This document shows, piece after piece, positions 3,173-27,489 of a DNA stretch of 33,701 nucleotides (position 1 is its first letter; every line of letters starts with the position of its first letter). The notes under the pieces were generated by a model. It was not told the DNA's origin and did no database searches. It saw only the letters and a list, made by a program, of their open reading frames with translations. Origin of the DNA: an uncultured Rickettsiales bacterium (lineage in GTDB: Bacteria; Pseudomonadota; Alphaproteobacteria; Rickettsiales; JABCZZ01); NCBI GenBank assembly GCA_964520155.1, contig CAZFOM010000001.1:1-33701 (forward strand). Reading direction: 5' to 3'. Both the position numbers and the translations under genes were made by a program.

Positions 3173-3361
3173 AGCGGGATCTACTCATACTGACTTTGCG
3201 GAGTGGATGCAACACAAGTTGCGCGCCGGACACAGGCAATCATCAAACCAGTTGACGCGCCAGACAAAACGTTATTTATTAATCCTTTAGTAAAGAACAA
3301 TTGCGAGAGTAATCGCTCCCGTAAAGTTTATAACTGTGAGGCGCCTGTGAGTCGAGATAGC

Positions 3362-11678: not shown

Positions 11679-12518
11679 ATGATTGTGACCCAAACCCACT
11701 CTGCAAACCTGACTGACTGGCTTCATACACTCTGGCAGAAACGCAGCCTGCTGTTTCAACTCACCAAGCGCGATGTGGCGGGGCGCTATCGTGGCTCAGC
11801 ATTGGGGTTGACATGGACGTTGCTGAACCCGCTGCTGCTGCTTGCGGTGTATACGTTTGTGTTCACGGTGGTGTTCAAGGCGCGCTGGGGAGCGATCCCG
11901 ATGTCGAGCGCGCAGGATACGGGGATGTTTGCGATCATTTTATTTACCGGACTTATGCTGCACATGCTGGTGGCCGAATGCCTGGTGCGCGCGCCTTCGA
12001 TCATTTTACACAATGAAAATCTCGTCAAAAAAGTGATTTTTCCGCTGGAGTTGTTTCCGGTGATGCTACTTGCATCGGCCTTGTTTCATCAGGCGATGGT
12101 ATTTGTCATTCTGCTGGTAGCAATCGTAGTGGTCACCGGCCATCTCAACGAAACCATCCTCTATCTTCCACTGATCTGGTTACCTTTCTGGTGCCTGCTG
12201 CTCGGGCTTACGTATATAGTGGCGTCTCTCGGAGTCTATCTGCGCGATATCGGTCAGATCATGCAACTCTTTATCACCGTGCTGCTGTTTATCAGTCCGG
12301 TGTTTTACCCAATCGAGGTTCTGCCGGTTGAGTATCAGCGCTTCATGCTCATCAATCCGCTTACCACCGTGATCGAGCAGACGCGGGATGTGCTGTTGTG
12401 GGGACGCGCACCGCACTGGAACCACCTTTCGATCTTCGCTGGTATTTCGCTTCTCACCCTGATGATCGGGATCTTCTGGTTCCAGAAAACACGCAAAGGA
12501 TTTGCGGATGTCCTCTGA
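11679..12518 (+). CDS. wzm: ABC-2 type polysaccharide export permease (Wzm/TagG/KpsM-like)
   Basis: 279 aa with six hydrophobic helices. N-terminal block LLFQLTKRDVAGRYRGSALGLTWTLLNPLL is typical of ABC-2 permeases. It overlaps the following ATPase gene by 17 nt. Confidence 0.8.
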   Translation: MIVTQTHSANLTDWLHTLWQKRSLLFQLTKRDVAGRYRGSALGLTWTLLNPLLLLAVYTFVFTVVFKARWGAIPMSSAQDTGMFAIILFTGLMLHMLVAECLVRAPSIILHNENLVKKVIFPLELFPVMLLASALFHQAMVFVILLVAIVVVTGHLNETILYLPLIWLPFWCLLLGLTYIVASLGVYLRDIGQIMQLFITVLLFISPVFYPIEVLPVEYQRFMLINPLTTVIEQTRDVLLWGRAPHWNHLSIFAGISLLTLMIGIFWFQKTRKGFADVL

Positions 12519-13812
12519 CGCGATGATCTCACTGGACGGCGTGAGCAAAACCTATCTGCTGTATCCGTCGCCTGCCTCGCGCCTGAAACAATTTCTGTTT
12601 CGCGGACTCAAAAATTATTATCGACCCGTTGAAGCGCTGAAACCGCTCTCTCTTACACTGCATAAAGGCGAAACGGTGGGAATCGTAGGACGCAACGGCT
12701 CGGGCAAATCTACCCTTTTGCAATTGATCTGCGGTACGCTTGCAACCACCACCGGAGAGATTCAGGTGCATGGGCGCGTGGCGGCGCTGCTCGAGCTTGG
12801 CGCCGGATTCAACATGGAATTTTCCGGCCGCGAAAATATCTATCTGAATGGCAGCGTGATGGGGCTCACGCACGAGCAGATCAAAGCCAAGGAGTCTCAG
12901 ATCGAACAATTCGCGGCGATCGGTCATTTCATCGAGCAACCCGTGAAAACCTATTCGAGCGGAATGATCGTTCGTCTTGCTTTTGCGATCGCCACCGCGG
13001 TGGATCCGGATATTCTGATTGTCGATGAAGCACTCGCGGTGGGGGATGAAGCGTTCCAGCGTAAATGCTATGCGCGCATCCGCGACATGCAGCGTAACGG
13101 GGCGACCATCCTGTTTGTCTCGCACGCGTCACAGGCGATTGTCGATTTATGTGATCGCGCGCTTCTGATTGATCGCGGCGAGCTGCTGATGGATGCAACG
13201 CCCAAGCAGGTCATCACCGCGTACCATAAACTCATTTATGCTTCACCCGATAAGGAACCTGAAATTCGAGAATCCTTACGCAAAGGCGCGTGGGAACATG
13301 AAGCCGCCTCATCGCCTGCCGAGCAGGGCGCGCGTTTGAGCGAATCTATGACCGAATATCCCAAACGCGGCGGCGAGATTTCATCACCGATGCTACTCGA
13401 TGGGCAGGGACGTGCGGTGAGTGTGTTTGAGCAGGGAAAGAGCTACCAATTCCGCTACCGCTTTACCCGCACGACCGAAGCAGAAAGACTGCGTTTTGGT
13501 ATGTTCATCAAAACCCGAACCGGTGTGGAGCTGGGCGGTGCGGTGCACGAAATTGACGCGCTCCCGCTCCATCAACCCGTCTGGATGCAGTTTACCTTCA
13601 CCGCGAATATGTTGCCTGGAACCTATTTCATCAGTTGCGGCGTGACCGGATATGTCGGCGGCGAAGAACTGTATCTGCACCGCTTGGTGGATGCGCTCGA
13701 AATGCGGGTGATGAACCCATCGAGTCGAAACGCGCATGGGCTGCTGAATGCAGGGCTTGTGGATTTCGACTTTCGTGCCGTGCTCAACACATCGGAAGAA
13801 CGTGCCGCATGA
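12502..13812 (+). CDS. wzt: Polysaccharide ABC exporter ATPase (Wzt/TagH-like) with a C-terminal extension
   Basis: Walker A GRNGSGKST, signature YSSGM, Walker B ILIVDEAL. After the NBD (ending around residue 250) comes a beta-rich C-terminal extension of about 185 aa (...YQFRYRFTRT...MFIKTRTGVELGG...FTFTANMLPGTYFISCGV...). It resembles the Wzt C-terminal glycan-binding module. The start could be ATG 12502, 12508 or 12523. Confidence 0.85.
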   Translation: MRMSSDAMISLDGVSKTYLLYPSPASRLKQFLFRGLKNYYRPVEALKPLSLTLHKGETVGIVGRNGSGKSTLLQLICGTLATTTGEIQVHGRVAALLELGAGFNMEFSGRENIYLNGSVMGLTHEQIKAKESQIEQFAAIGHFIEQPVKTYSSGMIVRLAFAIATAVDPDILIVDEALAVGDEAFQRKCYARIRDMQRNGATILFVSHASQAIVDLCDRALLIDRGELLMDATPKQVITAYHKLIYASPDKEPEIRESLRKGAWEHEAASSPAEQGARLSESMTEYPKRGGEISSPMLLDGQGRAVSVFEQGKSYQFRYRFTRTTEAERLRFGMFIKTRTGVELGGAVHEIDALPLHQPVWMQFTFTANMLPGTYFISCGVTGYVGGEELYLHRLVDALEMRVMNPSSRNAHGLLNAGLVDFDFRAVLNTSEERAA

Positions 13813-14504
13813 GTTCCGATCCTAGTAGCTATTATGACCCGCAGGCAGTGGCACAAACGGTGGCGCGTGGAGAACACCGCGAAGCGATCGGTGGCATGTG
13901 GGAAGAAATCGGCGCACTGCAGATGCAGTTTCTTATCCGCGAGGGACTGAAGCCGCATCATCGTTTGCTCGATGTCGGATGCGGTTCGCTGCGCCTCGGT
14001 GTGAAAGCGATTTCGTATCTCGACCATGAGCACTATTACGGTCTCGATATATCCGAAGATCTGGTGAAAGCGGGATACGATAAAGAATTATCTTCTGAAC
14101 AACGCGCAAAATTTCCGTGGCGTAACGTCGCAATTTCGGATGCGTTCGATGTCAGTACATTTGCGGTGGAATTCGATATGGCGATTGCACAATCGGTATT
14201 TACCCATCTGCCGCTCAACCATATTCGCCGGTGCCTTGCGATGATTGCGCCGAAACTCAAACGCGGCGCGCATTTCTATGCGACTGCCTGGATGGTGCCC
14301 GATGCTCATCCGCTGCACGAACCTTATACGCAAAACGCTATGCTCGGCGAGCATTCCATCACAACGTATGATACACACGACCCGTATCACTATCATATGC
14401 GTGATCTATTGTTTGCGGCTGAGAATCTGCCGTATCAGGTGCATGTGATCGGTGCGTGGGGACATCCGCGTCACCAGTCGATGCTGCGGTTTGAGAAACG
14501 ATAA
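13809..14504 (+). CDS. Class I SAM-dependent methyltransferase
   Basis: ATG 13809 overlaps the wzt stop (ATGA at 13809-13812). Motif I is LLDVGCGSLRLG, with an acidic post-I residue in YYGLDIS. The listed ORF start at 13635 lies inside wzt in another frame. Confidence 0.75.
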   Translation: MSSDPSSYYDPQAVAQTVARGEHREAIGGMWEEIGALQMQFLIREGLKPHHRLLDVGCGSLRLGVKAISYLDHEHYYGLDISEDLVKAGYDKELSSEQRAKFPWRNVAISDAFDVSTFAVEFDMAIAQSVFTHLPLNHIRRCLAMIAPKLKRGAHFYATAWMVPDAHPLHEPYTQNAMLGEHSITTYDTHDPYHYHMRDLLFAAENLPYQVHVIGAWGHPRHQSMLRFEKR

Positions 14505-14762
14505 CCTCTCTGCTAGACAGGCATATTCGCTAACGAATTTTTAATGATATCACATGCTTCGAAGTACTCTAAATTTCTATTAATTCCGTGCTGTGATTTT
14601 TTCGCAACAAACGCGACAAGTTAGAAACACAATGCGATGTAGTCCGCAGAATTACTAAGCAATTCCATGGTTAATAATGCGTTAAATTTTATGATTGCAA
14701 TTAATCCGTCGAAAAACACTCGCAGTTACGCACAGCGCAAAACATTTCGATACTTTTTTCAC

Positions 14763-14790
14763 TTGCAATTGCATCATGCGAGCATATTAA
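14763..14790 (+). promoter_or_regulatory. Candidate sigma70-type promoter for the RTX surface-protein gene
   Basis: TTGCAA (14763-14768), a 16-nt spacer, then TATTAA (14785-14790), inside a 371-bp AT-rich intergenic region. It would give a 5' UTR of about 80 nt. Pattern match only. Confidence 0.3.
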
Positions 14791-14875
14791 TGAGTCCCAT
14801 TTCAGGGATGTTTCTAGAAACACTTCCAAAGAATTTGTCTATTAACCAAAGCTAACTAACAAAGAGGTTTTTCAC

Positions 14876-17737
14876 ATGGCTACTTTCAATTTTACCAGCC
14901 TGATCGGTCAGACGATTCCGAATTTTAACGTCGCCGCAGATACGCTGGCTATTCTGGACACGTCTTCTAACGTGCGCCTTACGCAGAATGGTGCAAACCT
15001 GCAGGTGACCACCAGCGCAGGCACCGTCACCATCGCGAACATGACGCTTGCTCAGGCTACCACCTCTAACATTTCTGGTGTTGGCGGACAGATCTTTGTG
15101 GGTGACAACAACACCGGCACCGTGTTCGATGATGTCGGTAACACGATCAACCCAGGCTCCGGCGCCAACCTGATTTACGGTATGGGCGGTGCTGACACCA
15201 TCACGGTGGGTGATGGTAACAACGTGGTATTCGGTGGCACGGGTCTGACCGACACTACGGACGGTGGCGATACCATGACCATCGGCACGGGCGCAAATAC
15301 CATTTATGGTAACGCGGGTAACGATGCTCTTACGCTTACCAACGGTACAGCTGCTGGAAATACCTCGACTGTGTTCCTCGGTCTTGGCGACGATTCTTAC
15401 ACCGCTACCGCCGCACACGCGGGTAACCACAACATTACCGGTGGTTCGGGTGCTGATACCATCAACGTGTTTGGCACGACTGGCGACGTAACCATCATCG
15501 GCGGTATTGCCATCACCGATACGACTGACGGTGCCGACACCGTTACGCTTGGCACGGGAAGCGTTTCCGCATTCCTGAACGCAGGCAACGACAACGTAAC
15601 CGGTGGCGCAACTGCTGCTGGTAAAACGGCAAACCTGAACCTCGGTCTGGGTAACGATACCTACGGTAACGCAACGGCAGTAGCGGGTGCTACCACCGTG
15701 ACCGGCGGTTCTGGCAATGACAACATCACCTTCAACGGTGCTGCAACCGCAGACATCACCATTTTCGGCGGAAACGGTATCACGGACACGACCGATGGTA
15801 ATGATACCATCACCTTGGGTGGTACTTTTGCGGGCAACGCAACCATTTATGGTAACGCAGGTAACGATACGTTTGCGACCATCGCAACCGTTGCTGGCAA
15901 AACCATCACCATCTTTGGTGGTCTGGGCGACGATGCTGTGACTCTTTCCACTCAGGCTGGCGATGATCGCTACACCCTGAACATGGGTACGGGCAACGAT
16001 ACCATCAACGCAAACCTTGGCACCTCTGCCGATGTAACGATCACCGCGATCGAAGCAACCGACATCACCAACGTGACGCTCGGTGGCGGTGCAGGCCGCA
16101 ACGCAGCGGCACTGACCGCTCAGGTTGCCGGCAGCACCATCGTACTGGTAAACGATCGCGGCTCCGATGGTACCTACACCGTGGGCACGGACGAGCGCAT
16201 CACGCTGCTTAACCAGACGGCTTCGCTCACCAATACCAACTTCATCATTACGGACGGTGACGGTAACGCCAGCCGCCTGCTGGTAAACACCACCACGACC
16301 GGCACGACCATGACGGGTAGCGCATTCGGTGACCAGATCATCGGTGGTTCGGGCAACGACACCATCGTCGGTGGTAACACGGCTGCAACTAACAACGACC
16401 GCATCAATGCGGGCGCTGGTGATGACCGCATCCAGTATCTGGCTGCTGCTGCGACCGACCTGCAGAACGACACCGTGGACGGTGGCGACGGTACGGACAC
16501 CTTCGAAGTGACCGATACGAACGCTGCAACCTTTGCCGCAAACGACGTGGCTGCGCTTGTAAACGTGGAAACGCTGCTCCTCAGCAACGCTTCGCACACG
16601 GTTCAGGGCGTGTTCGCTTCGGGTCGTCTCAACACCATCAATGCAACGGCTCTCGCTGGCACCAACACGCTCAGCGTGACGACGGATTCAGGTAGCTCCA
16701 ACAACCTGGTCGTCAACGCAAACAGCAACTCGACTGGTGCTATCACTGTGAACCTGTCCAACCTGACCGGTAACGGTACGGTTACCACGGCAGGCGGTGC
16801 AGACGTGATCACTGCAGGTTCGGGTAACGACAACATCTCGACCGGTGCCGCAGATGACACGATCAACATCGCTGCTGCAAACTTCACCTCTGCTGACACC
16901 ATTGCTGGTGGTCTGGGCACGGGTGATGCGATTGCTCTGTCCTCTGTTTCGGCAGGTGCAGATGCAGTTGTGGATGCTGATTTCAGCAACGTTTCCGGTC
17001 TGGAAACGCTGACCATCTTCAACGGTGCTTCGAATCAGACCTTCACGCTGGGTTCCGCGGCTTCTTCCGCTGGTATCAACAACGTGAACGGCGCGGCTGA
17101 GAACACGGGTACTGAGAACCTGACGATCACTGCAACCGGCATGACCACGGCCGTTACCATCACCGGTGGTTCTGGTAACGACTCCCTCACGGGTGGTGGC
17201 CAGGCAGACAGCATCGATGGCGGTGCGGCTAACGATACCATCATCGGTGGCGCAGGTAACGACACCCTCATCGGTGGCGCAGGTAACGACACCTACGTCA
17301 TGCTCGCAACTGGCGGCGGTGTGGATCAGATCGCAACCGCAAACTGGGTGCAGGCCAACGACCTGTTCGACTTCCGCATCGGTGGCTGGAGCTTTGCTGG
17401 TGGCGTGACCGAAACGGTTTCCGCACAGGCTGCTCTGGGTACGCTCGGCAACAACGGTACGCTCGTGTACACTGCAAACGCAGTGGGCAACGCCAGCGCA
17501 CTGAAAGTGCTGCTCGATGCAGACACCAACTTCGACAATACCAACATTGGTAACCGTGTGGTGGTGTGGGAAATCGATGGTACCAACGTAGGTGTCGGCG
17601 TGATCAACAACGCAGATACCTTGGACAACAACAGCGTGACCGTGACGCAGGTTGCTCAGATCACCGGTCTTGCCAACCAGGCAGCGGTGGACACTCTGAC
17701 CGGTGCTCTCGCAGCTTCCAACTTCGACCTGTTCTAG
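14876..17737 (+). CDS. Large acidic RTX-repeat surface protein (S-layer/RsaA-like T1SS substrate)
   Basis: 953 aa, rich in Thr/Gly/Asn/Asp/Ala, with no Cys and few Lys/Arg. GGxGxD-type repeats run throughout. A canonical five-unit nonapeptide block sits about 145 aa from the C-terminus, and the acidic/hydrophobic C-terminal tail is ...ALAASNFDLF. AAGAGG (14862-14867) lies 8 nt before the ATG, a strong terminator follows the stop, and T1SS genes lie immediately downstream. Confidence 0.85.
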   Translation: MATFNFTSLIGQTIPNFNVAADTLAILDTSSNVRLTQNGANLQVTTSAGTVTIANMTLAQATTSNISGVGGQIFVGDNNTGTVFDDVGNTINPGSGANLIYGMGGADTITVGDGNNVVFGGTGLTDTTDGGDTMTIGTGANTIYGNAGNDALTLTNGTAAGNTSTVFLGLGDDSYTATAAHAGNHNITGGSGADTINVFGTTGDVTIIGGIAITDTTDGADTVTLGTGSVSAFLNAGNDNVTGGATAAGKTANLNLGLGNDTYGNATAVAGATTVTGGSGNDNITFNGAATADITIFGGNGITDTTDGNDTITLGGTFAGNATIYGNAGNDTFATIATVAGKTITIFGGLGDDAVTLSTQAGDDRYTLNMGTGNDTINANLGTSADVTITAIEATDITNVTLGGGAGRNAAALTAQVAGSTIVLVNDRGSDGTYTVGTDERITLLNQTASLTNTNFIITDGDGNASRLLVNTTTTGTTMTGSAFGDQIIGGSGNDTIVGGNTAATNNDRINAGAGDDRIQYLAAAATDLQNDTVDGGDGTDTFEVTDTNAATFAANDVAALVNVETLLLSNASHTVQGVFASGRLNTINATALAGTNTLSVTTDSGSSNNLVVNANSNSTGAITVNLSNLTGNGTVTTAGGADVITAGSGNDNISTGAADDTINIAAANFTSADTIAGGLGTGDAIALSSVSAGADAVVDADFSNVSGLETLTIFNGASNQTFTLGSAASSAGINNVNGAAENTGTENLTITATGMTTAVTITGGSGNDSLTGGGQADSIDGGAANDTIIGGAGNDTLIGGAGNDTYVMLATGGGVDQIATANWVQANDLFDFRIGGWSFAGGVTETVSAQAALGTLGNNGTLVYTANAVGNASALKVLLDADTNFDNTNIGNRVVVWEIDGTNVGVGVINNADTLDNNSVTVTQVAQITGLANQAAVDTLTGALAASNFDLF
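15185..15991 (+). repeat. Three tandem ~89-aa (about 267-nt) protein-level modules inside the RTX gene
   Basis: The motif (L/I)TDTTDGxDT recurs with Thr at residues 125, 214 and 303 (nt 15248, 15515, 15782), exactly 89 residues apart. The flanking segments align: DTI.V......V.I.GG..ITDTTDG.DT.T.G.G.......NAGND......T(A/V)AG.T....LGLG(D/N)D.Y....A.AG.....TGGSG.D. A degenerate fourth start follows. Confidence 0.7.
17165..17299 (+). repeat. Canonical RTX nonapeptide block (5 units)
   Basis: GGSGNDSLT GGGQADSID GGAANDTII GGAGNDTLI GGAGNDTYV (residues 764-808). The last two 27-nt units (17246-17272 and 17273-17299) are identical at 24 of 27 positions. Confidence 0.85.
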
Positions 17738-17760
17738 GCCTGAGTTGAAGTTCCAAAAAC

Positions 17761-17791
17761 GGGGGCGGCCTTCGGGTCGCCCTCTTTTTTT
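17761..17791 (+). terminator. Rho-independent terminator of the RTX gene
   Basis: gggggcggcc (17761-17770), loop ttcg, ggtcgccctc (17775-17784). This is a 10-bp stem (8 Watson-Crick plus 2 G-U pairs) with a TTCG tetraloop, followed by seven T (17785-17791). It starts 24 nt after the stop codon. Confidence 0.85.
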
Positions 17792-17928
17792 GAGCTTCCG
17801 GCGATTAGCCATCGGCTGTCAGCGTTCAAATCTCAATGCTTTTTTGAATTTCAGGAACTTCATTGTAAATCCGCGTCACCTGTCCTATATAGCCGTATCC
17901 ACTTACGTTATTAATCTCTTGTCCGTTC

Positions 17929-19668
17929 ATGAATATCCCTGCCGCGCAGCCGAGTGACACTCTGGTCAAGGAATCCTTCCGCAAGACCAAAAAGGCCTTC
18001 ATCTATATCGGCGTCTTCAGCCTGTGCATGAACATCATGCTGCTTGCTCTGCCGATCTACTCGCTGCAGGTGCTTGACCGCGTCATGTCAAGCCACAGCT
18101 TGAGTACATTGTTCTGGCTGACGGTGGTAATTGTGGGGCTGTTGGTGTTTTACGGTCTCTTTAATGCCATTAAAACCGCGATCTTAAACAAGATGGGCGA
18201 ATGGATGGAACTGAGTGTGGCGCCCGAATTGCTAAGCAACGCCATCACCCGCTCCTCTCTTGCGGTGTTTTCGAGCGGTTCACAGTATTACCGTGACCTT
18301 GGCGCAGTGAAATCCTTTGTCACCGGCGGTGGCGTTGCTACACTGTTCGATGCGCCCTGGGCGATTCTCTTTCTGCTTGTGGTGTATCTGATTAATCCGG
18401 TGCTGGGCTTTGTCACACTGCTCGGCTGCTTCATGCTGCTGGGTCTTGCAGTGCTTACCGAACTAACCACCAAGAAACCGACAGATCTCGCCAGTAAATC
18501 CTCGATCCGAGTGAATACCATCGCTGAAACCGCAACCCGCAATGCGGAGATGATCGAAGCGATGGGGCTGATGCGCAACATTCTGGAAGACTGGAAACAA
18601 CATAATCAGCGCAGTCTTGATCTACAGGCGATCGCAGCCAACCGCTCGAATGTACTCTATTCCACTTCGCGCGTGTTGCGTATGGTGATGCAGGTTGCGA
18701 TCACGGGGATCGGCGCGTGGCTCGCACTCAATAATCAGATGACGATCGGCGGCATGATTGCGTCTTCGATTCTCGCCGCGCGCGCGCTCGCTCCGTTTGA
18801 GTCCGCGATAGGCGTATGGAAAAGCTGGGTGATCGCGCGCGAATCCTATCACCGCCTGGATAAATCCTTCGCGCATGTAAACAGCCTGCGTGGTAATGTG
18901 GATCTGCCGGCACCGCGCGGCATTGTTCAGGTGGATCAACTGATGTACCGTCCGGCCACCTCGGACAAGCCGATCATCAAGGGGGTCTCGTTTGACATTA
19001 AACCCGGGGAATCGGTGGGTATTATTGGCCCGTCCGCGGCTGGTAAATCGACACTTGCCAAGTTACTGATGGGCATTCTGCCGCCTTCGCATGGGACTGT
19101 GCGGCTGGACGGGGCGGATATTTTCAAATGGAACCGCGAGTATCTGGGGCAATATGTGGGCTATATGCCGCAGGATGTGGAGCTGTTTTCGGGCACCATC
19201 AAAGATAATATCGCGCGCATGGATAAACAAGCGCCGATCGAAAAGGTCATCGAGGCCGCGCGCAAAGCACATGTGCACGAAATGATCCTGCAACTGCCGC
19301 GCGGGTATGAGACGGAATACAGCTATGGCAATATCAATCTGTCGCCCGGGCAGCGTCAGCGCATCGGGCTTGCGATCGCGCTGTATGGCAATCCCCGTTA
19401 TGTCGTGCTCGATGAGCCCAACGGTAACCTGGACGGTGAGGGCGAACGCGCACTGGTTCAGACCATGCACTACATCAAATCGCAGGGCATCACGTTGGTG
19501 GTGGTGGCGCACCGCCCATCGATCGTGGGCTTTGTCGATAAAATTCTGGCGCTGCGCGGCGGGCTGATCGAAGCGTTTGGGCCACGCGAGGAAGTACTCA
19601 AACGCTACACGGCACCGCAACAGCCGCCCGCACAGGCGCAACTCGCAGCCGGAGGTGCGGCGGCATGA
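17929..19668 (+). CDS. Type I secretion system ABC exporter (PrtD/AprD/RsaD class, no N-terminal C39/CLD domain)
   Basis: 579 aa. The N-terminal transmembrane domain begins almost at the N-terminus (FIYIGVFSLCMNIMLLALPIYSLQVLDRV, typical of PrtD-type exporters). Walker A GPSAAGKST, signature LSPGQRQR, Walker B VVLDEPN. Confidence 0.9.
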   Translation: MNIPAAQPSDTLVKESFRKTKKAFIYIGVFSLCMNIMLLALPIYSLQVLDRVMSSHSLSTLFWLTVVIVGLLVFYGLFNAIKTAILNKMGEWMELSVAPELLSNAITRSSLAVFSSGSQYYRDLGAVKSFVTGGGVATLFDAPWAILFLLVVYLINPVLGFVTLLGCFMLLGLAVLTELTTKKPTDLASKSSIRVNTIAETATRNAEMIEAMGLMRNILEDWKQHNQRSLDLQAIAANRSNVLYSTSRVLRMVMQVAITGIGAWLALNNQMTIGGMIASSILAARALAPFESAIGVWKSWVIARESYHRLDKSFAHVNSLRGNVDLPAPRGIVQVDQLMYRPATSDKPIIKGVSFDIKPGESVGIIGPSAAGKSTLAKLLMGILPPSHGTVRLDGADIFKWNREYLGQYVGYMPQDVELFSGTIKDNIARMDKQAPIEKVIEAARKAHVHEMILQLPRGYETEYSYGNINLSPGQRQRIGLAIALYGNPRYVVLDEPNGNLDGEGERALVQTMHYIKSQGITLVVVAHRPSIVGFVDKILALRGGLIEAFGPREEVLKRYTAPQQPPAQAQLAAGGAAA

Positions 19669-21068
19669 GCCAGATTCCTGCAACTAAAACCGAATGGATC
19701 CGTTATCTGCGCTCCTACAGCGAGGCGCTCGATCGCTGGTCGGCGATGATTTCGCCCGCGCGGCCTGAATCTTCTGACAAGCCGGAATACAGTGCGCGTA
19801 TGCCTATTCAGGCTGGCCTGTGGATGATTGTGGCCGTGTTTGGCGCGTTTGGTCTGTGGGCGGGGCTTGCGCCATTGGATAGTGCGGCACTGGCGCCTGG
19901 CTATGTGGTGCTCGATTCCAACCGCAAATCCATCCAGCATCTCGAGGGTGGGATCGTAGAAGAAATTCTGGTGCGTGAAGGCTCGCAGGTGAAAGCGGGT
20001 GAGGCACTGGTTCGCCTCAACCCGACGGCGACTGAAGCGCGGCTTGATCTCTTCCGCAATCAGTATTTTGGCAATAAAGCGATTGAAGCACGGCTGTTTG
20101 CAGAGCGCGACGGCAAGGAAAAGATCGAGTTTCCCAAAGAGTTGCTTGATAAAGCTAACGATCCGGTGGTGAAAGAACAGATCGAGAATCAGCAGCAGCA
20201 GTTCAAAACCCGCAGAGACTCTCTCAACAGTCAGTTGGGTATTCTTAGGCAGAAGGCCGAACAATCGAAAAAGGAAATTGAAGGGCTGGAAGCGCAGATC
20301 CGTTCTGCCGACGATCAGATCAAATACCTGAATGAAGAAATCAAAACCGTGCAAATCCTCCTGTCGCAGGGTAACGCACAGAAGCCGAGATTGCTTGCGC
20401 TTCAGCGCAATAGGGCGCAACTCGAAGGGCAGCGGGGTGAGAATAAATCCTCCATCGCACGCGCCGAGCAGATGATCGCCGAATCCGAACTGGCGGTGCA
20501 GAGCCAGATCAACGATTTTCAGACCCGTGTTGCGGCGGAACTCAAGGACACGCAGCTCCAGCTCTCCGATCTTCAAGAGCGGGTGCGTGCCTCCGAAGAT
20601 GTGAAAAGCCGTATCGTGATTACCTCGCCGGTGGATGGGATCGTGACAGGGCTTGCGGTGCATACGGTAGGCGGTGTGATCAATCCGGGCGGGCGGATCA
20701 TGGATATTGTGCCGCTGGGGGATAAACTCATTGTGGAAGCGCGCGTGAATCCTCAAGATATTGATGTGGTGCACAAAGGCTTAACCGCGCAGGTGCGCCT
20801 GACGGCGTTCAAATCGCGCACGGTACCACCCGTGAAGGGCACGGTGGAAAATATATCGCCGGATCGTTTTACCGACGAACGCACGGGAATTTCCTATTTT
20901 GTAGCGCGGGTCGAGATACAGCAAAAAGAGCTGGACGCGCTGAAGGATGTCGAACTTTCCGCAGGGATGCCCGCCGATGTCATGATTCTCACCGGATCTC
21001 GCACCTTGCTTGGCTATATCCTAAGCCCGATTGGTGAGTCGTTCCATCAGGCCTTCCGCGAACAGTGA
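19665..21068 (+). CDS. Type I secretion membrane fusion protein (HlyD/AprE/RsaE family)
   Basis: ATGA overlap with the ABC gene (19665-19668). It has a single N-terminal TM helix (LWMIVAVFGAFGLWAGLAPL), a long coiled-coil middle, and a C-terminal block GMPADVMILTGSRTLLGYILSPI typical of HlyD-family adaptors. Confidence 0.9.
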   Translation: MSQIPATKTEWIRYLRSYSEALDRWSAMISPARPESSDKPEYSARMPIQAGLWMIVAVFGAFGLWAGLAPLDSAALAPGYVVLDSNRKSIQHLEGGIVEEILVREGSQVKAGEALVRLNPTATEARLDLFRNQYFGNKAIEARLFAERDGKEKIEFPKELLDKANDPVVKEQIENQQQQFKTRRDSLNSQLGILRQKAEQSKKEIEGLEAQIRSADDQIKYLNEEIKTVQILLSQGNAQKPRLLALQRNRAQLEGQRGENKSSIARAEQMIAESELAVQSQINDFQTRVAAELKDTQLQLSDLQERVRASEDVKSRIVITSPVDGIVTGLAVHTVGGVINPGGRIMDIVPLGDKLIVEARVNPQDIDVVHKGLTAQVRLTAFKSRTVPPVKGTVENISPDRFTDERTGISYFVARVEIQQKELDALKDVELSAGMPADVMILTGSRTLLGYILSPIGESFHQAFREQ

Positions 21069-21791
21069 TTAGCGTTTCAGCCCCAACGCTTTCCACCGAT
21101 ACGGCGGGCGGTCGAGTTCGTCGAGCTGGCCGCTTGTGCCGGTGGGTTGCGGCGGGACAAATTTATCAAAGAGCACAATTTTGTCGTTACGCACGATCGT
21201 GCTTGTCGCTCCAATTTTATAGGCCAATCCCCATAGTAACCATTCTTCGCGCTTGATTTCGATATTGCTGAACCCTGCGGCTTTGAAAGCCTTTCCGAGC
21301 GTGGCGGTGGTGAATATGGTGCGTGATTCCACACCCATCCGCATACTTCCATAGAGCAGTTCTAACGGGCTGAGCGTGGCGCCGCCTGGCAGGCGCGCCA
21401 GCGGTTCATCGAGCGCGCGTCCTTCCCACAGATACTTGGCAATCGTCTGCACCTCCACGGTGTTAAGCAGTATCATTCCATCATCGCGCAATACCCGAGG
21501 GATTTGCTTTAACACCTCTACGACTTCCGTAGCGTTGAGGGATTGCAGGCGCTGCGAAAACCAAACAGCCTCGACGCAGGCATTTGGCAAAAGTGCCAGC
21601 GTGTCAAATCCGCCCAGTATATCTGGCGCATTTGCGTGCTGGGGATCTACGCGAATTTCCTCCCACGCATCCGCTGTAAATTGAACATGCAGGCGTTTTT
21701 CCCGCGCCGCACCTGAAAACAGATGCAGTACGCGCTTCTTATCCGATGCCGTCGAGAACCGTTTCATCTGTGCAGACGTGAGTTTTTTCAT
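21069..21791 (-). CDS. Methyltransferase-fold protein with an atypical SAM motif I
   Basis: The pattern RVLHLFSGAA...EIRVDP....PDILGGFDTLALLPNACVEAVWFSQRLQSL...VLKQIPRVLRDDGMILLNT resembles Methyltransf_11/23-type enzymes from LPS loci. The usual GxGxG is replaced by FSGAA. There is a 4-nt ATGA overlap with the upstream GT4 gene, and its stop abuts the HlyD stop (21068/21069). Confidence 0.5.
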   Translation of the reverse strand: MKKLTSAQMKRFSTASDKKRVLHLFSGAAREKRLHVQFTADAWEEIRVDPQHANAPDILGGFDTLALLPNACVEAVWFSQRLQSLNATEVVEVLKQIPRVLRDDGMILLNTVEVQTIAKYLWEGRALDEPLARLPGGATLSPLELLYGSMRMGVESRTIFTTATLGKAFKAAGFSNIEIKREEWLLWGLAYKIGATSTIVRNDKIVLFDKFVPPQPTGTSGQLDELDRPPYRWKALGLKR

Positions 21792-23047
21792 GCGGCCCTG
21801 CGTGCGAGTTGCGCGTGGGTGGAGGGCGGGATCTGCCCGCTTGCCAGCTCCCGAATCAACGCCAGATGATGCGGTAGCACCACGCTCAGATCGTAACGCT
21901 CCAGTATCGTCTGCCGCGCTGCTTTACGCATGGATTGGTATTGCTCGGGGTTTCGCACCGCATGAAGAACTTTTTCCGCTAATTCCTGCGGTGAGAAGAA
22001 ATCCACCAGCACGCCGTTTTTCCCATCCGAGATGACTTCCTCCACGGGTGGGGTGCGCGAGGCGACCATCAGGCATTCGCAGGCCATGGCTTCCATCATC
22101 GACCAGGACAGCACGAACGGATACGTTAGATAGATATGCGCGGCCGAAACTTGCATGATCTTGAGCATTTCGCGGTAAGGCAGCGGAGCAACGAAATGCA
22201 ATCTCCGAAGATCCGGTTTCAATTCTTCCGTAAACATCTTGCGATATGTCGTGCCCGTTGGTGGGGTGCGTCCGTAGCTCACCTCATCCGCACCAACGGC
22301 AATCACATGCACGTCCGGATCCATCTCTTGCAGTCGCTTCACCGCTTTCATGAACGTTGGAAAGCCCCGATAATGCTCAAAATTCCGTGCGACATAGGTC
22401 ACCACCGGATCCCCTTGTTTGAAGCTGATCCCGTCGGGCATCTGAATGCGAACATTGGGATTCGGTGCCGCAACCGTTGCGTCTATTCCATCGTGAAGGA
22501 CACTCATTTTACTGTGAAACAGGGACGGGTATTGACGAAGTTGCCACTCGGTCGGCGTAATACCCCAGTCACAAGCCTCAAGCGCCAGCAGATTGACGCT
22601 GTTTTTTACCCGCAGCCGTGCTTTGTCGTCTTCTGTTATGGGGTGCTCAAACCCCATATCCGATCCCGCGGTGCGGTAATAAAACTCAAAAAAGTTCAAC
22701 AATTTGGTGTCTGGAAAAATATCTTTAACAAACAACGAATCGCCCCATCCCGGGTGCGCGCATATTACATCAGGTATAAACCCTTCCGTATCGCGTAATG
22801 CCTTGAGCATCCGCCAAGTTTCCTGACCCTGGAGCACGGAGCGTTCAGTGCCGGTCAGGTAGCGATGCGTGTATTGTGAAGGTTCACGAAACACCTCGTA
22901 TTCCAACTTGGTCACACCTTCGATGGTTGGAGCTTTAGCGTTGACCTTACTCAGAAACACCACCTGATTGTTAGGATCTTGTGCAAGGGTGCTGCATAAA
23001 TGTTTATATTGTCCCGGGAAATTCGGGTGCATGAAGAGGATTTTCAT
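21788..23047 (-). CDS. GT4-family (GT-B fold) glycosyltransferase
   Basis: C-terminal EX7E-type block SWSMMEAMACECLMVASRTPPVEEVISDGKNGVLVDFFSPQELAEKV. The probable start is ATG 23047 (MKILFMHPNFPGQY...). The listed ORF begins at an upstream GTG (23092). Confidence 0.8.
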   Translation of the reverse strand: MKILFMHPNFPGQYKHLCSTLAQDPNNQVVFLSKVNAKAPTIEGVTKLEYEVFREPSQYTHRYLTGTERSVLQGQETWRMLKALRDTEGFIPDVICAHPGWGDSLFVKDIFPDTKLLNFFEFYYRTAGSDMGFEHPITEDDKARLRVKNSVNLLALEACDWGITPTEWQLRQYPSLFHSKMSVLHDGIDATVAAPNPNVRIQMPDGISFKQGDPVVTYVARNFEHYRGFPTFMKAVKRLQEMDPDVHVIAVGADEVSYGRTPPTGTTYRKMFTEELKPDLRRLHFVAPLPYREMLKIMQVSAAHIYLTYPFVLSWSMMEAMACECLMVASRTPPVEEVISDGKNGVLVDFFSPQELAEKVLHAVRNPEQYQSMRKAARQTILERYDLSVVLPHHLALIRELASGQIPPSTHAQLARRAA

Positions 23048-23156
23048 AGGCCAGACCGCTATCGAAGCCGCAGTTTTATCGCCTAAATTCACGATTTACA
23101 ATATCTTAATACATTCCCATTTATAGTAGGAGCATTAGCACATCAGGGAGGATTTC

Positions 23157-24755
23157 ATGTGTGTCTTGTGCGCTCAGCGTTCACTGGCAAATGGGCAGTT
23201 TTCTGGCCATGTCGAGATGAATTTTGCCACCCTTACTCCCACGCTCACACCAACCACTCCCACCGGCACCAGCACAACAACTGCCGCGGTTGCGACGTTA
23301 CTCGAAACATTTAACTGGAATGGGACGATCGGCACAGCTGCCATGGTACCTTATTCCTTTGGTCTCAGCTTTGAAGGCGGCACACTGTTCAACGCGACCG
23401 AGCGCACTGCGGCACTCAGCGCCATGCAGCAATGGGCAAACGTCGCCAATATCAATTTTCAGTCCGTGACCAATAGCAGCGCCAAACTCGCATTCTCAAA
23501 AACCACGTTCGGCCCCGATCTTGCCGGACTGACCACCACGTTTTTCAGCGGCACGCGGATTGCGCAATCCGAAGTGCAGATTGATTCCACCGTTACCAGC
23601 TTTGGCAATGGCACGTTCGGACATCTCGTCATGCTGCATGAGATTGGCCATGCACTCGGTCTCAAACACCCGGGCGCTTACGGCCCATCAGATACTGGGC
23701 CATACCTGACCAGCGCCGAGGATACGATCCAGAACACGGTCATGTCGTATAACGACAGCGCGCTGGTTAACGCATCGAACTATCCGGTGACGCCCATGAT
23801 CTACGATATTGCCGCCATGCAATATCTGTATGGCGCCAATATGGCCTTCAATGCCGGTGATTCGAACTACACATTTAATGGCAGCACCACGGCACAAACC
23901 CTGTGGGACGGCGGTGGGTTTGATACGATTCAGGTTGCGGGCTTTACTGGCAACACCACGATTGATCTCAACTCCGGCATCAACAACGCCACCTCCATTG
24001 GTGGCGCACGGATCTGGATTGCATTTAATGCCAACATCGAAAACGCGATTGGCAACAACGGCAACGACCGCATTACTGGCAATGCGCTGGGTAACCATCT
24101 GTATGGCTCCGGCGGGCTGGATACGATTAATGGCGGTGCAGGGAACGATCTGATCTTCGGCGGTAACGGCGTGACGGATCCCACCGACGCCTCGGATCTG
24201 ATCTTCGGCGGATCGGGTGTGGATGAAATTTATGGTAATGGCGGCAATGATACGATTTACGGCGGTGCCAGCGAAACGGATGGATCGGACGCGGCCGACC
24301 TGGTTTACGGCGGTCTGGGTGTTGATTTCATTGCCGGAAATGCCGGAAACGATACGATTTACGGCGGAGGCAGCACCACGGATCCATTCGATCAGGGAGA
24401 TACGATTTTCGGCGGGCTGGGTAACGATCTGATCTACGGCAATGGCGGCGGCGACCAGATTTTTGGCAGTGTTGGAAACGATACGATGCACGGTGGCCTG
24501 GGAGATGACCAATACCGTATCAGTTCCGGCGAGGGGCAGGATCTGATTTTATTCTTTGAAGGCGCGGGTGTTGCCGGTGGGGATGTGATCGTCCTGTCGT
24601 CCAATATCAACGGAATCGGTGTTGGCAGTGGCGCAGGGATGATTCCACAGATCAGTTACGGAAGCGGCAATGCCCTGATCAATCTCGGGGGCGGGAATAA
24701 CCTCACCGTGTTTGGCGTGACTAGCTTTACCGCCGACGATTTCGCTTTTGTATAG
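23157..24755 (+). CDS. Serralysin-type (metzincin M10B-like) zinc metalloprotease with a C-terminal RTX domain
   Basis: AGGGAGGA (23145-23152) precedes ATG 23157. Zinc motif HEIGHALGLKH at 23637-23669, and the Met-turn with Tyr is TVMSY. RTX-type repeats span about 24051-24515 (GGAGNDLIFGG, GNGGNDTIYGG, GNAGNDTIYGG, GGLGNDLIYGNGGGDQIFG). The C-terminus FTADDFAFV resembles the acidic-hydrophobic T1SS tails of secreted proteases. Confidence 0.85.
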   Translation: MCVLCAQRSLANGQFSGHVEMNFATLTPTLTPTTPTGTSTTTAAVATLLETFNWNGTIGTAAMVPYSFGLSFEGGTLFNATERTAALSAMQQWANVANINFQSVTNSSAKLAFSKTTFGPDLAGLTTTFFSGTRIAQSEVQIDSTVTSFGNGTFGHLVMLHEIGHALGLKHPGAYGPSDTGPYLTSAEDTIQNTVMSYNDSALVNASNYPVTPMIYDIAAMQYLYGANMAFNAGDSNYTFNGSTTAQTLWDGGGFDTIQVAGFTGNTTIDLNSGINNATSIGGARIWIAFNANIENAIGNNGNDRITGNALGNHLYGSGGLDTINGGAGNDLIFGGNGVTDPTDASDLIFGGSGVDEIYGNGGNDTIYGGASETDGSDAADLVYGGLGVDFIAGNAGNDTIYGGGSTTDPFDQGDTIFGGLGNDLIYGNGGGDQIFGSVGNDTMHGGLGDDQYRISSGEGQDLILFFEGAGVAGGDVIVLSSNINGIGVGSGAGMIPQISYGSGNALINLGGGNNLTVFGVTSFTADDFAFV

Positions 24756-27286: not shown

Positions 27287-27489
27287 TAGCATATCTCCTT
27301 ATTGGGTTAAGCGAGTGAATGCCAACGATTATTCCAGACGGTTTTTATTATTTTAATGTGTTGGCCGATCACTAACACACCGCACCGGCTTTGTCAAAAT
27401 GACATGCCCTAAAGAGGGAAATAGAGTAAGCGGCTCTAATTCCTTCTATTATTCGTGCAATTTCTTTTGATGTGGCTATAGTGCGCCGC

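Follow-up and report, generated by a model that had tools for sequence, protein, structure and literature searches.

Results

Gene content of the locus

The window, that is the whole stretch of 33,701 nucleotides analysed here from an uncultured Rickettsiales bacterium, carries a block of genes for glycan export, methyl and glycosyl transfer and type I secretion of RTX proteins (Table 1). All the genes named in the original prediction were present close to where it had placed them, with only small corrections of coordinates, and the tight junctions it described were borne out: neighbouring genes overlap by 4 nt at wzt/MT1, ABC/MFP and GT4/p240, while MFP and p240 meet stop codon to stop codon. 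The family assignments of Wzm, Wzt, the ABC exporter, the MFP, GT4 and the RTX protein are secure. Genes for sugar-nucleotide synthesis, a polymerase and an outer-membrane factor had been reported as missing from the window, which is correct; our search of the window turned up neither a gene for sugar-nucleotide synthesis nor one for a polymerase, a ligase or a TolC-like protein.

Table 1. Features of the gene block and of its surroundings, with positions in the window.
Feature	Position	Strand	Basis
EamA/DMT-family transporter	10547-11488	+	Pfam EamA, 110 bits
Wzm, ABC-2 permease, glycan exporter	11679-12518	+	ABC2_membrane, 75 bits
Wzt, ATPase with C-terminal carbohydrate-binding domain	12502-13812	+	ABC_tran and Wzt_C
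MT1, class I SAM methyltransferase	13809-14504	+	Methyltransf_12, 43 bits
Promoter-like element of the RTX gene	14754-14790	+	Conservation in orthologous upstream regions
RBS AAAGAGG of the RTX gene	14861-14867	+	Sequence read directly; conserved in relatives
953-aa RTX protein	14876-17737	+	HemolysinCabind, 82.5 bits
Intrinsic terminator of the RTX gene	17761-17791	+	Stem and T7 run
ABC exporter, PrtD type	17929-19668	+	TIGR01842
MFP (HlyD adaptor)	19665-21068	+	TIGR01843
p240, methyltransferase-fold protein	21069-21791	-	Orthologues match Methyltransf_11
GT4 glycosyltransferase	21788-23047	-	PF12000 (Glyco_trans_4_3), 197 bits
Serralysin-like RTX metalloprotease	23157-24755	+	Active-site motif, Met-turn, RTX repeats, tail
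BTLCP/LapG-like protease	27472-28146		

Glycan export and methyltransferase genes

In 6/6 orthologous loci, the EamA gene adjoins glnD and lies just 5' of wzm, the two genes overlapping or standing 3-8 nt apart in L002, L006 and L008, and wzm is directly 5' of the RTX gene. In L090 and L093 too, EamA adjoins GT4 and the type I secretion genes, and the transporter is possibly part of the block. Wzt has a Wzt_C domain (83.5 bits) and in PDB came closest to the O-antigen transporter Wzm-Wzt of Aquifex (E 8.8e-67); among the orthologous loci, wzt was found only in the window, L001 and L002, and is missing in 3/6. The methyltransferase gene predicted next to it is real; it starts at the ATG at 13809, which overlaps the wzt stop as ATGA, and MT1 is translationally coupled to wzt. 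MT1 shares 28% identity (E 5e-12) with a methyltransferase ORF in the expE operon region of S. meliloti, had no WbdD match in a search against PDB and was carried by none of the relatives examined; the enzyme may cap or modify the glycan.

The RTX protein

As predicted, the 953-aa protein is acidic and Cys-free (pI 4.05, no Cys); its composition is 16.6% Thr, 15.4% Gly, 13.4% Ala and 10.9% Asn. The start of its gene stands as predicted, but the coding sequence stops at 17737, and the end first given, 17791, takes in the terminator, which is real (a 10-bp stem, 8 of its pairs G-C, ahead of a T7 run). Upstream, a T-run, TTGCAA (14763-14768), a 16-nt spacer and TATTAA (14785-14790) form a promoter-like element that is kept in 5/6 orthologous upstream regions; a generic promoter scan did not pick it up, and we infer that it would act as the RTX gene promoter. 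The RBS sits 8 nt 5' of the ATG. The 89-aa modules were confirmed in three copies (about aa 100-366), and so was the layout of an RTX block (about aa 760-812) followed by a long C-terminal part with a hydrophobic/acidic end, predicted at about 145 aa and found to be 141 aa ending in SNFDLF. The AlphaFold2 model (pLDDT 84.6) is all beta, and its Foldseek matches include the RTX part of CyaA, RsaA and MpAFP; at the N-terminus it has a small beta domain that resembles part of type I-secreted lipases. Homologues form a family of 900-970 aa seen in metagenomes only. N-x-S/T sites are in excess (39 observed versus 22.8 ± 3.9 expected) because of the RTX motif GNDT. Of the predicted type I secretion substrates this protein is the main one, and it would be surface- or glycan-associated.

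Type I secretion system and protease

The predicted dedicated type I secretion system of PrtD class, next to an RTX gene that looks strongly expressed, was supported, both components being above the model cut-offs: the ABC exporter scored 671 bits against TIGR01842 (PrtD type; cut-off 510) and the MFP 439 bits against TIGR01843 (cut-off 209). The exporter has no N-terminal C39 or C39-like domain, ABC_membrane beginning at residue 24. Acidic-hydrophobic C-terminal tails are of the type used by PrtD-class exporters, and both the RTX protein (SNFDLF) and the protease (DDFAFV) carry one. The protease also has the motif HEIGHALGLKH, a VMSY Met-turn and RTX repeats, with a score of 167 bits against the NCBI Zn_serralysin model, which is under its cut-off of 500. 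Identity as a Sap orthologue was considered and rejected (SapA model, 107 bits versus a cut-off of 1200). Its gene is present in L005 and truncated in L006, and tblastn on L001, L002 and L008 gave no protease-domain match, only RTX-repeat cross-hits within the RTX gene. The protease gene is thus a variable accessory one, and its product is likely a second type I secretion substrate; the quality-control editing originally attributed to it found no support: some relatives lack the gene or have it truncated, and orthology to Sap was rejected.

GT4, p240 and their neighbourhood

The database gene call for GT4 begins at M16 of our ORF. Its partner p240 has no Pfam match of its own; in an alignment with relatives its glycine-rich SAM motif is partly degenerate (LHLFSGAA in the window versus LHIGCG), the DELDxPP tail is conserved, and it shares 31% identity (E 7e-23) with the methyltransferase adjoining GT4 in Aureimonas. 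Neighbourhoods were counted in 72 controls and in the 48 metagenomic loci anchored on GT4 that had 6 kb of flank or more: a HlyD-type adaptor and/or RTX ORF stood beside GT4 in 25 of the 48 loci (52%) versus 3 of the 72 controls (4%; Fisher p = 1e-9), and 17 loci had an ABC or MFP gene at most 500 nt from GT4, in several different gene orders. Over all 80 GT4-anchored loci, G+C ranged from 37 to 72%, and wzm was seen in only one. The RTX ORFs of the GT4-anchored loci carried no enzyme domains. ABC-MFP-OEP, GT4 and wzm-wzt occur together in metagenomic locus L145, GT4 stays with ABC-MFP and no wzm in L090 and L093, and the GT4-methyltransferase pair occurs alone, without type I secretion genes and in housekeeping contexts, in L169 and L170.

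Conservation in relatives

The comparison of synteny in related genomes that the original prediction called for found the core of the block (EamA, wzm, RTX, ABC and MFP) in 6/6 orthologous metagenomic loci. The methyltransferase-like/GT4 pair is kept in five of them, L008 having no pair nearby, while wzt, MT1 and the protease come and go. Identity among these loci is 35-49% for the RTX protein, 55-77% for ABC, 53-74% for MFP and 52-65% for GT4, and the faster divergence of the RTX protein would fit an exposed surface protein.

Discussion

Our results support the view that the glycan genes are more than chance neighbours of the RTX and secretion genes, because the core is syntenic and the GT4 family is enriched beside type I secretion and RTX genes. 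We favour the reading that the block is an envelope module coupling a surface polysaccharide to type I-secreted RTX proteins, of the S. meliloti exp/wg kind, with a probability of roughly 0.5. In such a module, the ExpC-like GT4 and its paired methyltransferase-fold protein would make or decorate a lipid-linked glycan on the cytoplasmic side of the inner membrane. Wzm and Wzt, assigned to glycan exporters by family, would export this glycan, whose terminal modification, possibly added by MT1, is probably recognised by Wzt_C. The PrtD-type ABC exporter and the HlyD adaptor, again assigned by family, would work with an outer-membrane channel encoded elsewhere and secrete the 953-aa RTX protein and probably the serralysin-like protease too. 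Outside the cell, the RTX protein would fold on calcium into a long beta-roll and remain associated with the glycan, where it would either supply the protein of a coat or matrix or be required for glycan production or retention, a role that genetics has established for ExpE1. Since the block has one glycosyltransferase, the glycan is not deducible from it.

A crystalline S-layer is possible, although we regard it as doubtful. The RTX protein would then form a calcium-dependent two-dimensional lattice on O-antigen exported by Wzm/Wzt, with the protease editing defective monomers. The acidic, Cys-free, Thr/Gly/Ala/Asn-rich composition, the monocistronic gene with its conserved promoter-like element and strong terminator, the rapid divergence of the protein relative to neighbouring genes and an exporter of PrtD type, like RsaD, are all consistent with this proposal, and S-layers built from other type I-secreted RTX proteins, with the secretion genes linked to them, are known (PMC3034196; PMC13274458). 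The all-beta calcium-binding architecture, with an RTX block and then about 140 aa, also recalls RsaA. RsaA was among the top Foldseek matches of the model (E 8e-6 to 1e-3), but with a TM-score of about 0.2 and with CyaA and other RTX proteins equal or better; the family profile matched RsaA (E 4e-7) in a region outside the canonical RTX block, but other RTX proteins scored far above it, and a phmmer search with the RTX protein gave no RsaA match. The N-terminal part is unlike RsaA, as had been predicted: the model has a small beta domain there, whereas the N-terminal domain of RsaA is one that we take to be helical. It is this RsaA domain that binds O-antigen (PMC11026435). Moreover, wzt and MT1 are not conserved alongside the RTX protein, the protease is dispensable in relatives and not a Sap orthologue, and sequence alone cannot imply a lattice. 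The link to RsaA, through the all-beta calcium-binding architecture and the profile match, is weaker than that to the exp system.

It is unlikely that functional coupling is absent altogether and that a general locus for LPS or polysaccharide simply lies next to an ordinary secretion cassette of the protease type near glnD in this clade. The synteny may be inherited rather than selected, because the six loci are orthologous and share one glnD-EamA flank; the variable presence of wzt, MT1 and the protease, the absence of the GT4 pair in L008 and the lone pairs of L169 and L170 would also fit. However, the 52% versus 4% association of GT4 with type I secretion/RTX genes occurs in unrelated contexts and gene orders, the module recurs in Sinorhizobium, Phaeobacter, Aureimonas and Azospirillum, and S. 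meliloti genetics link the secretion system to the polysaccharide (PMC1403797).

GT4 and its methyltransferase partner might instead glycosylate the RTX protein in the cytoplasm before type I export, giving a product like the glycosylated RTX surface proteins SwmA, oscillin and Sll1951, but we consider this quite improbable. To our knowledge, no GT4 enzyme glycosylates a type I secretion substrate. GT4 homologues do adjoin type I secretion/RTX genes far more often than glycan exporters, in L090 and L093 GT4 accompanies ABC-MFP where wzm is missing, the RTX protein is Thr- and Asn-rich, and glycosylated RTX surface proteins are known (PMC3034196; bioRxiv 10.1101/414151). Nevertheless, the N-x-S/T excess is accounted for by GNDT, homologues in cultured organisms sit among polysaccharide genes, and the characterised homologue ExpC belongs to polysaccharide synthesis (PMC1403797). 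Finally, a LapA-like adhesin, held by an N-terminal plug in the secretion channel and released by the LapG-like protease under an HD-GYP sensor, is very improbable, for while a LapG-like protease and a dCache-PAS-HD-GYP protein lie 2.7 kb past the block, TAAG motifs occur at aa 158 and 246 and LapG-like genes lie near GT4 in L096 and L157, the RTX protein matches no retention-module family, the AA dipeptide is not conserved in its family and sits within repeated beta-roll modules, the exporter lacks the C39-like domain of LapB-type exporters, the neighbour is no GGDEF-EAL receptor of the LapD type, the score against the LapG equivalog is 97 bits versus a cut-off of 320, and no LapG-like gene was found in the approximately 10 kb sampled 3' of the RTX gene in relatives.

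The favoured comparison with the exp system had been the alternative in the original prediction (ExpE1/ExpD1D2), and GT4, ABC, MFP and MT1 now give it direct homology support. Over 412 aa, 97% of its length, GT4 shares 39% identity (E 4e-94) with the gene that occupies the ExpC position in the galactoglucan (EPS II) cluster of S. meliloti. For the ABC exporter and MFP, the counterparts there are the genes at positions ExpD1 (40% identity over 550 aa) and ExpD2 (35% over 456 aa). An identity of 35-40% is ordinary among PrtD-family exporters, and what is specific to exp is solely the GT4 homology in combination with synteny. Counting against a module of this kind, wzt is missing in three orthologous loci, L008 has no GT4 pair nearby, and the GT4-methyltransferase pair also stands alone elsewhere. 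The 219-aa ExpE1 and the 953-aa RTX protein have RTX repeats alone in common, and the pyruvyl transferase and dTDP-sugar genes of the exp cluster are missing from the window. Conversely, the exp cluster lacks Wzm/Wzt while the window has both, and glycan export by this pair would be an added feature here. On pSymB, the annotated neighbours of the ExpC-position gene (PF12000) are a MarR regulator, a type I secretion ABC, a HlyD adaptor and a 219-aa calcium-binding protein. ExpE1 is secreted by ExpD1/D2, all three are required for EPS II, and ExpC is assigned to polysaccharide synthesis (PMC1403797). The same module is found on Phaeobacter biofilm plasmids (PMC5030684), Aureimonas pAU20a and Azospirillum pAB510f, and in cultured organisms the GT4 homologues accompany polysaccharide pyruvyl transferases, flippases and sugar-nucleotide genes.

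Results

Gene content and surroundings of the block

Every gene that the original prediction had named in the block was recovered when gene identities were checked with an ORF list and with Pfam and NCBIfam scans. Three descriptions needed amendment, that of the protease being taken up below. The RTX gene is present, but its coding sequence stops at position 17737, and the end first assigned to it took in the terminator. The methyltransferase fold of p240 and its place with GT4 in a convergent pair on the minus strand stand, but p240 itself has no Pfam match and its SAM motif is partly degenerate. As predicted, sugar-nucleotide, polymerase and outer-membrane factor genes are missing, and neither these nor TolC-like or ligase genes were found within the 33.7-kb window. 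A Rfam scan of the window returned zero matches.

Features of the block, with the evidence for each assignment
Feature	Coordinates	Strand	Evidence
wzm	11679-12518	+	ABC2_membrane
wzt	12502-13812	+	ABC_tran plus Wzt_C, 83.5 bits
MT1, class I methyltransferase	start ATG 13809	+	ATGA overlap with wzt stop codon
RTX protein, 953 aa	14876-17737	+	HemolysinCabind, 82.5 bits
RTX gene terminator	17761-17784	+	10-bp stem, then T7 run
PrtD-type ABC exporter, 579 aa	17929-19668	+	TIGR01842, 671 bits (cut-off 510)
HlyD adaptor (MFP)	19665-21068	+	TIGR01843, 439 bits (cut-off 209); 4-nt overlap with ABC gene
p240, 240-aa methyltransferase-fold protein	21069-21791	-	convergent pair with GT4
GT4	21788-23047	-	Pfam family PF12000
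Serralysin-like RTX metalloprotease	23157-24755	+	HEIGHALGLKH, VMSY Met-turn, DDFAFV tail

On its 5' side the block is preceded by genes for a PhoB/OmpR-type regulator, PhoX, a poly(A) polymerase-family protein, GlnD and an EamA transporter; on its 3' side lie a short MCP-like gene, amtB, and genes for a LapG-like BTLCP protease, a dCache-PAS-HD-GYP protein, a ferritin-like protein and BipA. The response regulator (3203-4087, +) and PhoX (4175-6073, +) precede the island by 5.6-8.5 kb; the orthologous loci L002 and L005 carry PhoX too. In S. meliloti, phosphate limitation induces the exp cluster via PhoB. Near the start of the window, a TrbC/VirB2-type pilin gene (981-1358, -; PF04956, 66 bits) is flanked by two ORFs without Pfam match (210-869 and 1802-2611). 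The MCP-like gene (24767-25801, -) encodes a conserved protein of about 345 aa, with counterparts in L005 (22158-22814) and L006 (20132-21178), in which a partial MCP signalling domain is N-terminal to a dCache domain, the inverse of the usual chemoreceptor arrangement.

Conservation of the core within the clade

The synteny set consisted of the window and five metagenomic orthologous loci (L001, L002, L005, L006 and L008; L003, L004 and L007 duplicate L002 and L006). Each of the six adjoins glnD-EamA, and the order EamA-wzm-RTX-ABC-MFP is common to all of them. Linkage of the glycan-export genes is not consistent beyond this core: wzt was found in three of the six (window, L001, L002) and MT1 in the window only. 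The methyltransferase-like/GT4 pair is kept nearby in five, the exception being L008. The protease is intact in the window and L005 and truncated in L006, and its domain gave no tblastn match in L001, L002 or L008. In L005 (8945-9730), L006 (8846-9664) and L008 (8951-9757), wzm lies immediately 5' of the RTX gene, and an ATPase gene beside it is missing.

In a glnD-anchored scan with one genome per GTDB species, the closest GlnD proteins (about 53% identity) came from Stellaceae and Rhodospirillales MAGs, and the island was absent from all 80 loci; it is specific to the clade of the source organism, an uncultured alphaproteobacterium of Rhodospirillales-like appearance. Across the orthologous loci, identity is 35-49% for the RTX protein, 55-77% for the ABC exporter, 53-74% for the adaptor and 52-65% for GT4. 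The RTX protein therefore diverges faster than its neighbours, the pattern expected of an exposed surface protein.

A second RTX protein occurs in some relatives. L005 encodes one of 638 aa after the protease (20217-22133, +), and on the 554-kb contig k141_870551 the family is represented twice, by proteins 868 and 838 aa long (P0033, P0056). Large proteins of 935-1404 aa without Pfam match adjoin the GT4-methyltransferase pair in L001 (18633-22847, -), L002 (18806-22213, -) and a further GT4 locus, L171 (12067-14874, -), followed in each by TadE-like genes; in L001 and L002 they fill the position of the window's protease.

The RTX protein and its expression signals

The RTX protein has a pI of 4.05, zero Cys, and 16.6% Thr, 15.4% Gly, 13.4% Ala and 10.9% Asn. 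Its layout agrees with the first reading: three copies of an 89-aa module at about aa 100-366, and a canonical RTX block at about aa 760-812 followed by a tail of 141 aa (predicted, about 145) ending in SNFDLF. It belongs to a family of 900-970-aa members known only from metagenomes. An AlphaFold2 model built from 26 homologues (mean pLDDT 84.6) is nearly all beta, and Foldseek matched it in the PDB to the CyaA RTX domain (E 1.7e-6) and also to MpAFP, a calcium beta-helix antifreeze protein (E 3e-3). An ice-binding reading of the latter match was set aside, as it mirrors the calcium beta-helix common to both. The N-terminal 76 aa were modelled as a small beta domain whose best match, a weak one, is part of family I.3 lipases (E 7e-3); when this domain was sought in other GT4-linked RTX proteins, weak matches only were obtained. 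No catalytic domain was detected in the protein by Pfam, phmmer or Foldseek, and a role as epimerase, lyase or hydrolase was discarded, the matches being to RTX modules only. It is best seen as a structural protein with a calcium-binding beta-roll. Its N-glycosylation sequons (39 observed, 22.8 expected) are uninformative, because the RTX motif GNDT produces the excess.

Upstream of the gene, a T-run, TTGCAA, a 16-nt spacer and TATTAA are conserved, as is a strong ribosome-binding site; together, they suggest that the RTX gene probably has its own strong promoter. A generic promoter scan found sites no more often than in shuffled sequence and missed this conserved element. At the distal end of the upstream region (14590-14610), an invariant TGTG is followed by about 8 variable bases and G-C-(A/C)-A-C-A-(A/G), mostly GCAACAA. 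This element, also present in L001, L002, L005, L006 and L008 (alignment A4, columns 88-106), may be a regulator-binding site.

Secretion system and protease

The ABC exporter is a fused TMD-NBD protein with ABC_membrane starting at residue 24 and no N-terminal peptidase or C39-like domain; with its adaptor it forms a type I secretion pair of the PrtD/AprD class. No OEP or TolC gene lies in the 33.7-kb window (the GT4 locus L145 has one), and the outer-membrane channel must therefore come from elsewhere in the genome. RTX repeats (HemolysinCabind scores 80.8 bits in the protease) and the C-terminal tails make the RTX protein and the protease predicted type I substrates.

The protease, first called serralysin-type, has the zinc site, the Met-turn and six RTX stretches, but it falls under the NCBI serralysin cut-off (NF035945, 167 bits vs 500). 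Peptidase_M10 gave 24.8 bits (cut-off 24), and Peptidase_M10_C stayed under its cut-off; the protein is a divergent relative. The idea of a Sap-type editing protease was not borne out: NF051884 (SapA) scored 107 bits against a cut-off of 1200, and the protease was not found in L001 and L002.

A LapA/LapG/LapD adhesin reading was rejected as well. There was no retention-module match, the AA dipeptide is unconserved (TAAG at aa 158 and 246 sits within repeat modules and varies across the RTX family), the exporter has no N-terminal domain, the adjoining protein is of HD-GYP type, and the LapG score is below cut-off. The LapG-like BTLCP cysteine protease itself (27472-28146, +; Peptidase_C93 66 bits; LapG equivalog 97 vs cut-off 320) adjoins the dCache-PAS-HD-GYP protein (28240-30375, +) 2.7 kb past the island. 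LapG-like genes were also seen near ExpC-like GT4 genes in two metagenomic loci, L096 (about 5019-5816) and L157 (3478-4326), of which L096 holds type I ABC and adaptor genes as well.

Glycan export genes

Wzm, an ABC-2 permease, and Wzt, an ATPase with a C-terminal Wzt_C domain, are predicted to form an O-polysaccharide exporter; among solved structures, Wzt comes closest to the Aquifex Wzm-Wzt O-antigen transporter (E 8.8e-67). MT1 is translationally coupled to wzt and has no kinase or coiled-coil region. As a candidate WbdD-like chain terminator, it gave no PDB match to WbdD.

GT4 genes adjoin type I secretion genes in many lineages

GT4 is the informative gene of the block. Metagenomes were searched with the aligned GT4 proteins of the island, which gave 80 loci at 42-54% identity and 37-72% G+C. 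In an unbiased clustering of their neighbours, the commonest families by far were the type I ABC (16 loci), the HlyD adaptor (14) and giant RTX proteins (8). Flanks of at least 6 kb were available for 48 loci, and 25 of these contained an HlyD-type adaptor and/or an RTX ORF (five or more RTX motifs), against 3 of 72 glnD-anchored controls (Fisher p = 1e-9). An ABC or adaptor gene lies at most 500 nt from GT4 in 17 loci, on the same strand in 10 of them. Gene order varies between loci; the RTX ORFs range from 180 to 3300 aa, and five that were scanned contained no enzyme domains. A p240-like methyltransferase adjoins GT4 in 10 of the 80 loci, and wzm was present in a single one, L145, where a complete ABC-MFP-OEP set, divergent from GT4, adjoins wzm-wzt. 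L145 is a second, independent composite of the window's kind. Two distant glnD-linked loci (L090 and L093) keep GT4 with ABC-MFP and have no wzm or adjacent RTX gene; tandem DUF2336 pairs, a NAD kinase and a second EamA gene flank their GT4/type I block (L090 5715-8081, L093 47-2240). The GT4-methyltransferase pair was also found alone in housekeeping contexts, and beside TadE genes and a large protein without Pfam match. A literature search on PF12000 function gave nothing useful.

Cultured carriers and the exp cluster

A tblastn search of PLSDB with GT4 gave 270 records, including Sinorhizobium (69), Phaeobacter (58), Ralstonia (44) and Azospirillum (17). The S. meliloti match falls in the exp/wg galactoglucan cluster of pSymB. 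The order there is a 219-aa calcium-binding protein (ExpE1 position), an HlyD adaptor (ExpD2), a type I ABC (ExpD1), a MarR regulator (ExpG) and a PF12000 glycosyltransferase (ExpC position), followed by DUF6212 and more glycosyltransferases, a pyruvyl transferase and rfbA/rfbC. As the record has generic product names, exp names were assigned by gene order and the published cluster description (PMC1403797). The homology of the window GT4 to the gene in the ExpC position is specific: both are PF12000 members and share 39% identity over 412 aa (E 4e-94). The ABC exporter (40% over 550 aa, E 1e-133, to the ExpD1 position) and the adaptor (35% over 456 aa, E 1.5e-86, to ExpD2) also match, at levels that are unspecific within the PrtD family, and MT1 resembles a methyltransferase ORF in the expE operon region (28%, E 5e-12). 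A likeness of the 953-aa protein to ExpE1 did not hold up: the RTX repeats alone align (51% over 53 aa), and no ExpE1 orthologue was found in the window. Of the further exp genes, ExpA/ExpE glycosyltransferases, the pyruvyl transferase, dTDP-sugar genes and ExpG, none occurs in the window.

Three other cultured organisms carry this module too. A Phaeobacter inhibens plasmid of about 70 kb encodes a PF12000 glycosyltransferase, a 771-aa RTX protein and a type I ABC with adaptor. On Azospirillum sp. B510 pAB510f, the ABC gene is divergent from GT4 and followed by pseB, an aminotransferase, a flippase and an 827-aa RTX protein. On Aureimonas pAU20a, a pair of SapC-family genes (L176 6724-8321) lies directly 5' of a series that encodes, in order, a methyltransferase, GT4, a pyruvyl transferase, an ABC and an HlyD adaptor; the sap S-layer secretion locus of Campylobacter fetus is where SapC was originally described.

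Discussion

The original prediction had put forward an RsaA-like S-layer island as its headline and an ExpE1/ExpD1D2-like system as its alternative. In view of the GT4 match to the ExpC position, it is the alternative that we favour. In S. meliloti, ExpC has a putative role as galactosyltransferase, ExpE1 binds calcium and is secreted, and genetics showed that polysaccharide production depends on a secreted protein and its exporter, as ExpE1 secretion and EPS II both need ExpD1/ExpD2 (PMC1403797). On this reading, a surface glycan would be made and exported by GT4, its methyltransferase partner and Wzm/Wzt/MT1, the type I system would export the 953-aa protein and the protease, and the former may associate with the glycan outside the cell. 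Since the PF12000 family lies beside type I/RTX genes in very different bacteria (52% of loci vs 4% of controls), coupling between polysaccharide and type I secretion is probably general. A stronger proposal is that ExpC-like PF12000 proteins and type I secretion form a widespread, conserved unit in many bacterial lineages, in which the RTX protein is an obligate extracellular partner of the polysaccharide, as a scaffold, retention or assembly factor, or else the substrate of GT4; we give it a probability of roughly one in four. If true, it would generalise the dependence of galactoglucan on ExpE1, and the window would represent a variant in which export runs through Wzm/Wzt and a large RTX protein serves to build a coat of protein and glycan.

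The headline reading, a crystalline S-layer anchored by O-antigen, is possible but less probable. Architecture, composition and expression signals (the conserved promoter-like element, ribosome-binding site and terminator) agree with it, but an RsaA-type N-terminal domain, a Sap-type protease and a consistently linked wzt all failed to appear. RsaA gave no phmmer match to the RTX protein. With the family profile it reached E 4e-7, at profile positions 560-735, outside the canonical RTX block, and it was outscored by CyaA, lipases, AlgE modules and serralysins. With Foldseek it scored E 8e-6 to 1e-3 (19% identity, TM-score about 0.2), and generic RTX proteins did as well or better. The likeness is architectural and at most very distant. 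The N-terminal domain of RsaA is helical, and no domain of this type was matched in the N-terminal 76 aa of the structure model. In Caulobacter, that domain binds O-antigen (PMC11026435).

Direct glycosylation of the RTX protein by GT4 is less likely still, since polysaccharide synthesis is what both the characterised homologue and the gene neighbours in cultured organisms suggest. Its precedents are SwmA of Synechococcus, oscillin of Phormidium and Sll1951 of Synechocystis (PMC3034196; bioRxiv 10.1101/414151), which are glycan-associated RTX-repeat surface or S-layer proteins; compared by description, they differ from the window in being cyanobacterial and in bearing the glycan on the protein itself.

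Each component family, like the exp and RsaA paradigms, is already known. New are an uncharacterised family of RTX proteins of about 950 aa, a core of exp-type GT4 and type I secretion genes joined to Wzm/Wzt export, and the tie of ExpC-like glycosyltransferases to type I secretion/RTX genes across many lineages. To our knowledge, why making or exporting a polysaccharide needs a type I-secreted calcium-binding protein has had no explanation since ExpE1 was described. The coupling is open to testing in tractable organisms, and for the uncultured clade the block predicts the chief components of the cell surface.

Several known systems resemble the block in part. With the Caulobacter system it shares an acidic, beta-rich RTX protein about 1000 aa long that depends on calcium and on type I secretion (here by prediction), an adjoining gene for a PrtD-type exporter, and the bipartite logic of surface protein plus glycan (PMC11026435). 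It differs in that a Sap orthologue is missing and that the glycan exporter genes are inconsistently linked in the window's relatives; a lattice of the window's RTX protein would be hypothetical. The E. coli O8/O9a WbdD and Aquifex Wzm-Wzt systems share Wzm, Wzt_C and a wzt-coupled methyltransferase gene, but no similarity to WbdD was seen in MT1, and the window has no polymerising or initiating glycosyltransferase and no ligase. In the Roseobacter group, the 65-kb biofilm plasmids of Phaeobacter inhibens encode a type I secretion ABC exporter 36% identical to that of the window, with polysaccharide genes on the same small replicon; plasmids of this type are needed for biofilm and have an ABC-type polysaccharide exporter aboard (PMC5030684). 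Unlike the block, the Phaeobacter module is plasmid-borne and accompanied by a rhamnose operon, a pyruvyl transferase and LuxR regulators. Finally, the exp cluster has neither Wzm/Wzt nor a protease, has a pyruvyl transferase, dTDP-sugar genes and several additional glycosyltransferases that the window lacks, and is controlled by PhoB and the MarR-type ExpG (PMC1403797), a regulator without counterpart in the block. The two nevertheless have in common a PF12000 GT4, a PrtD-type ABC with HlyD adaptor, an adjoining gene for a secreted RTX protein and a methyltransferase matching MT1.
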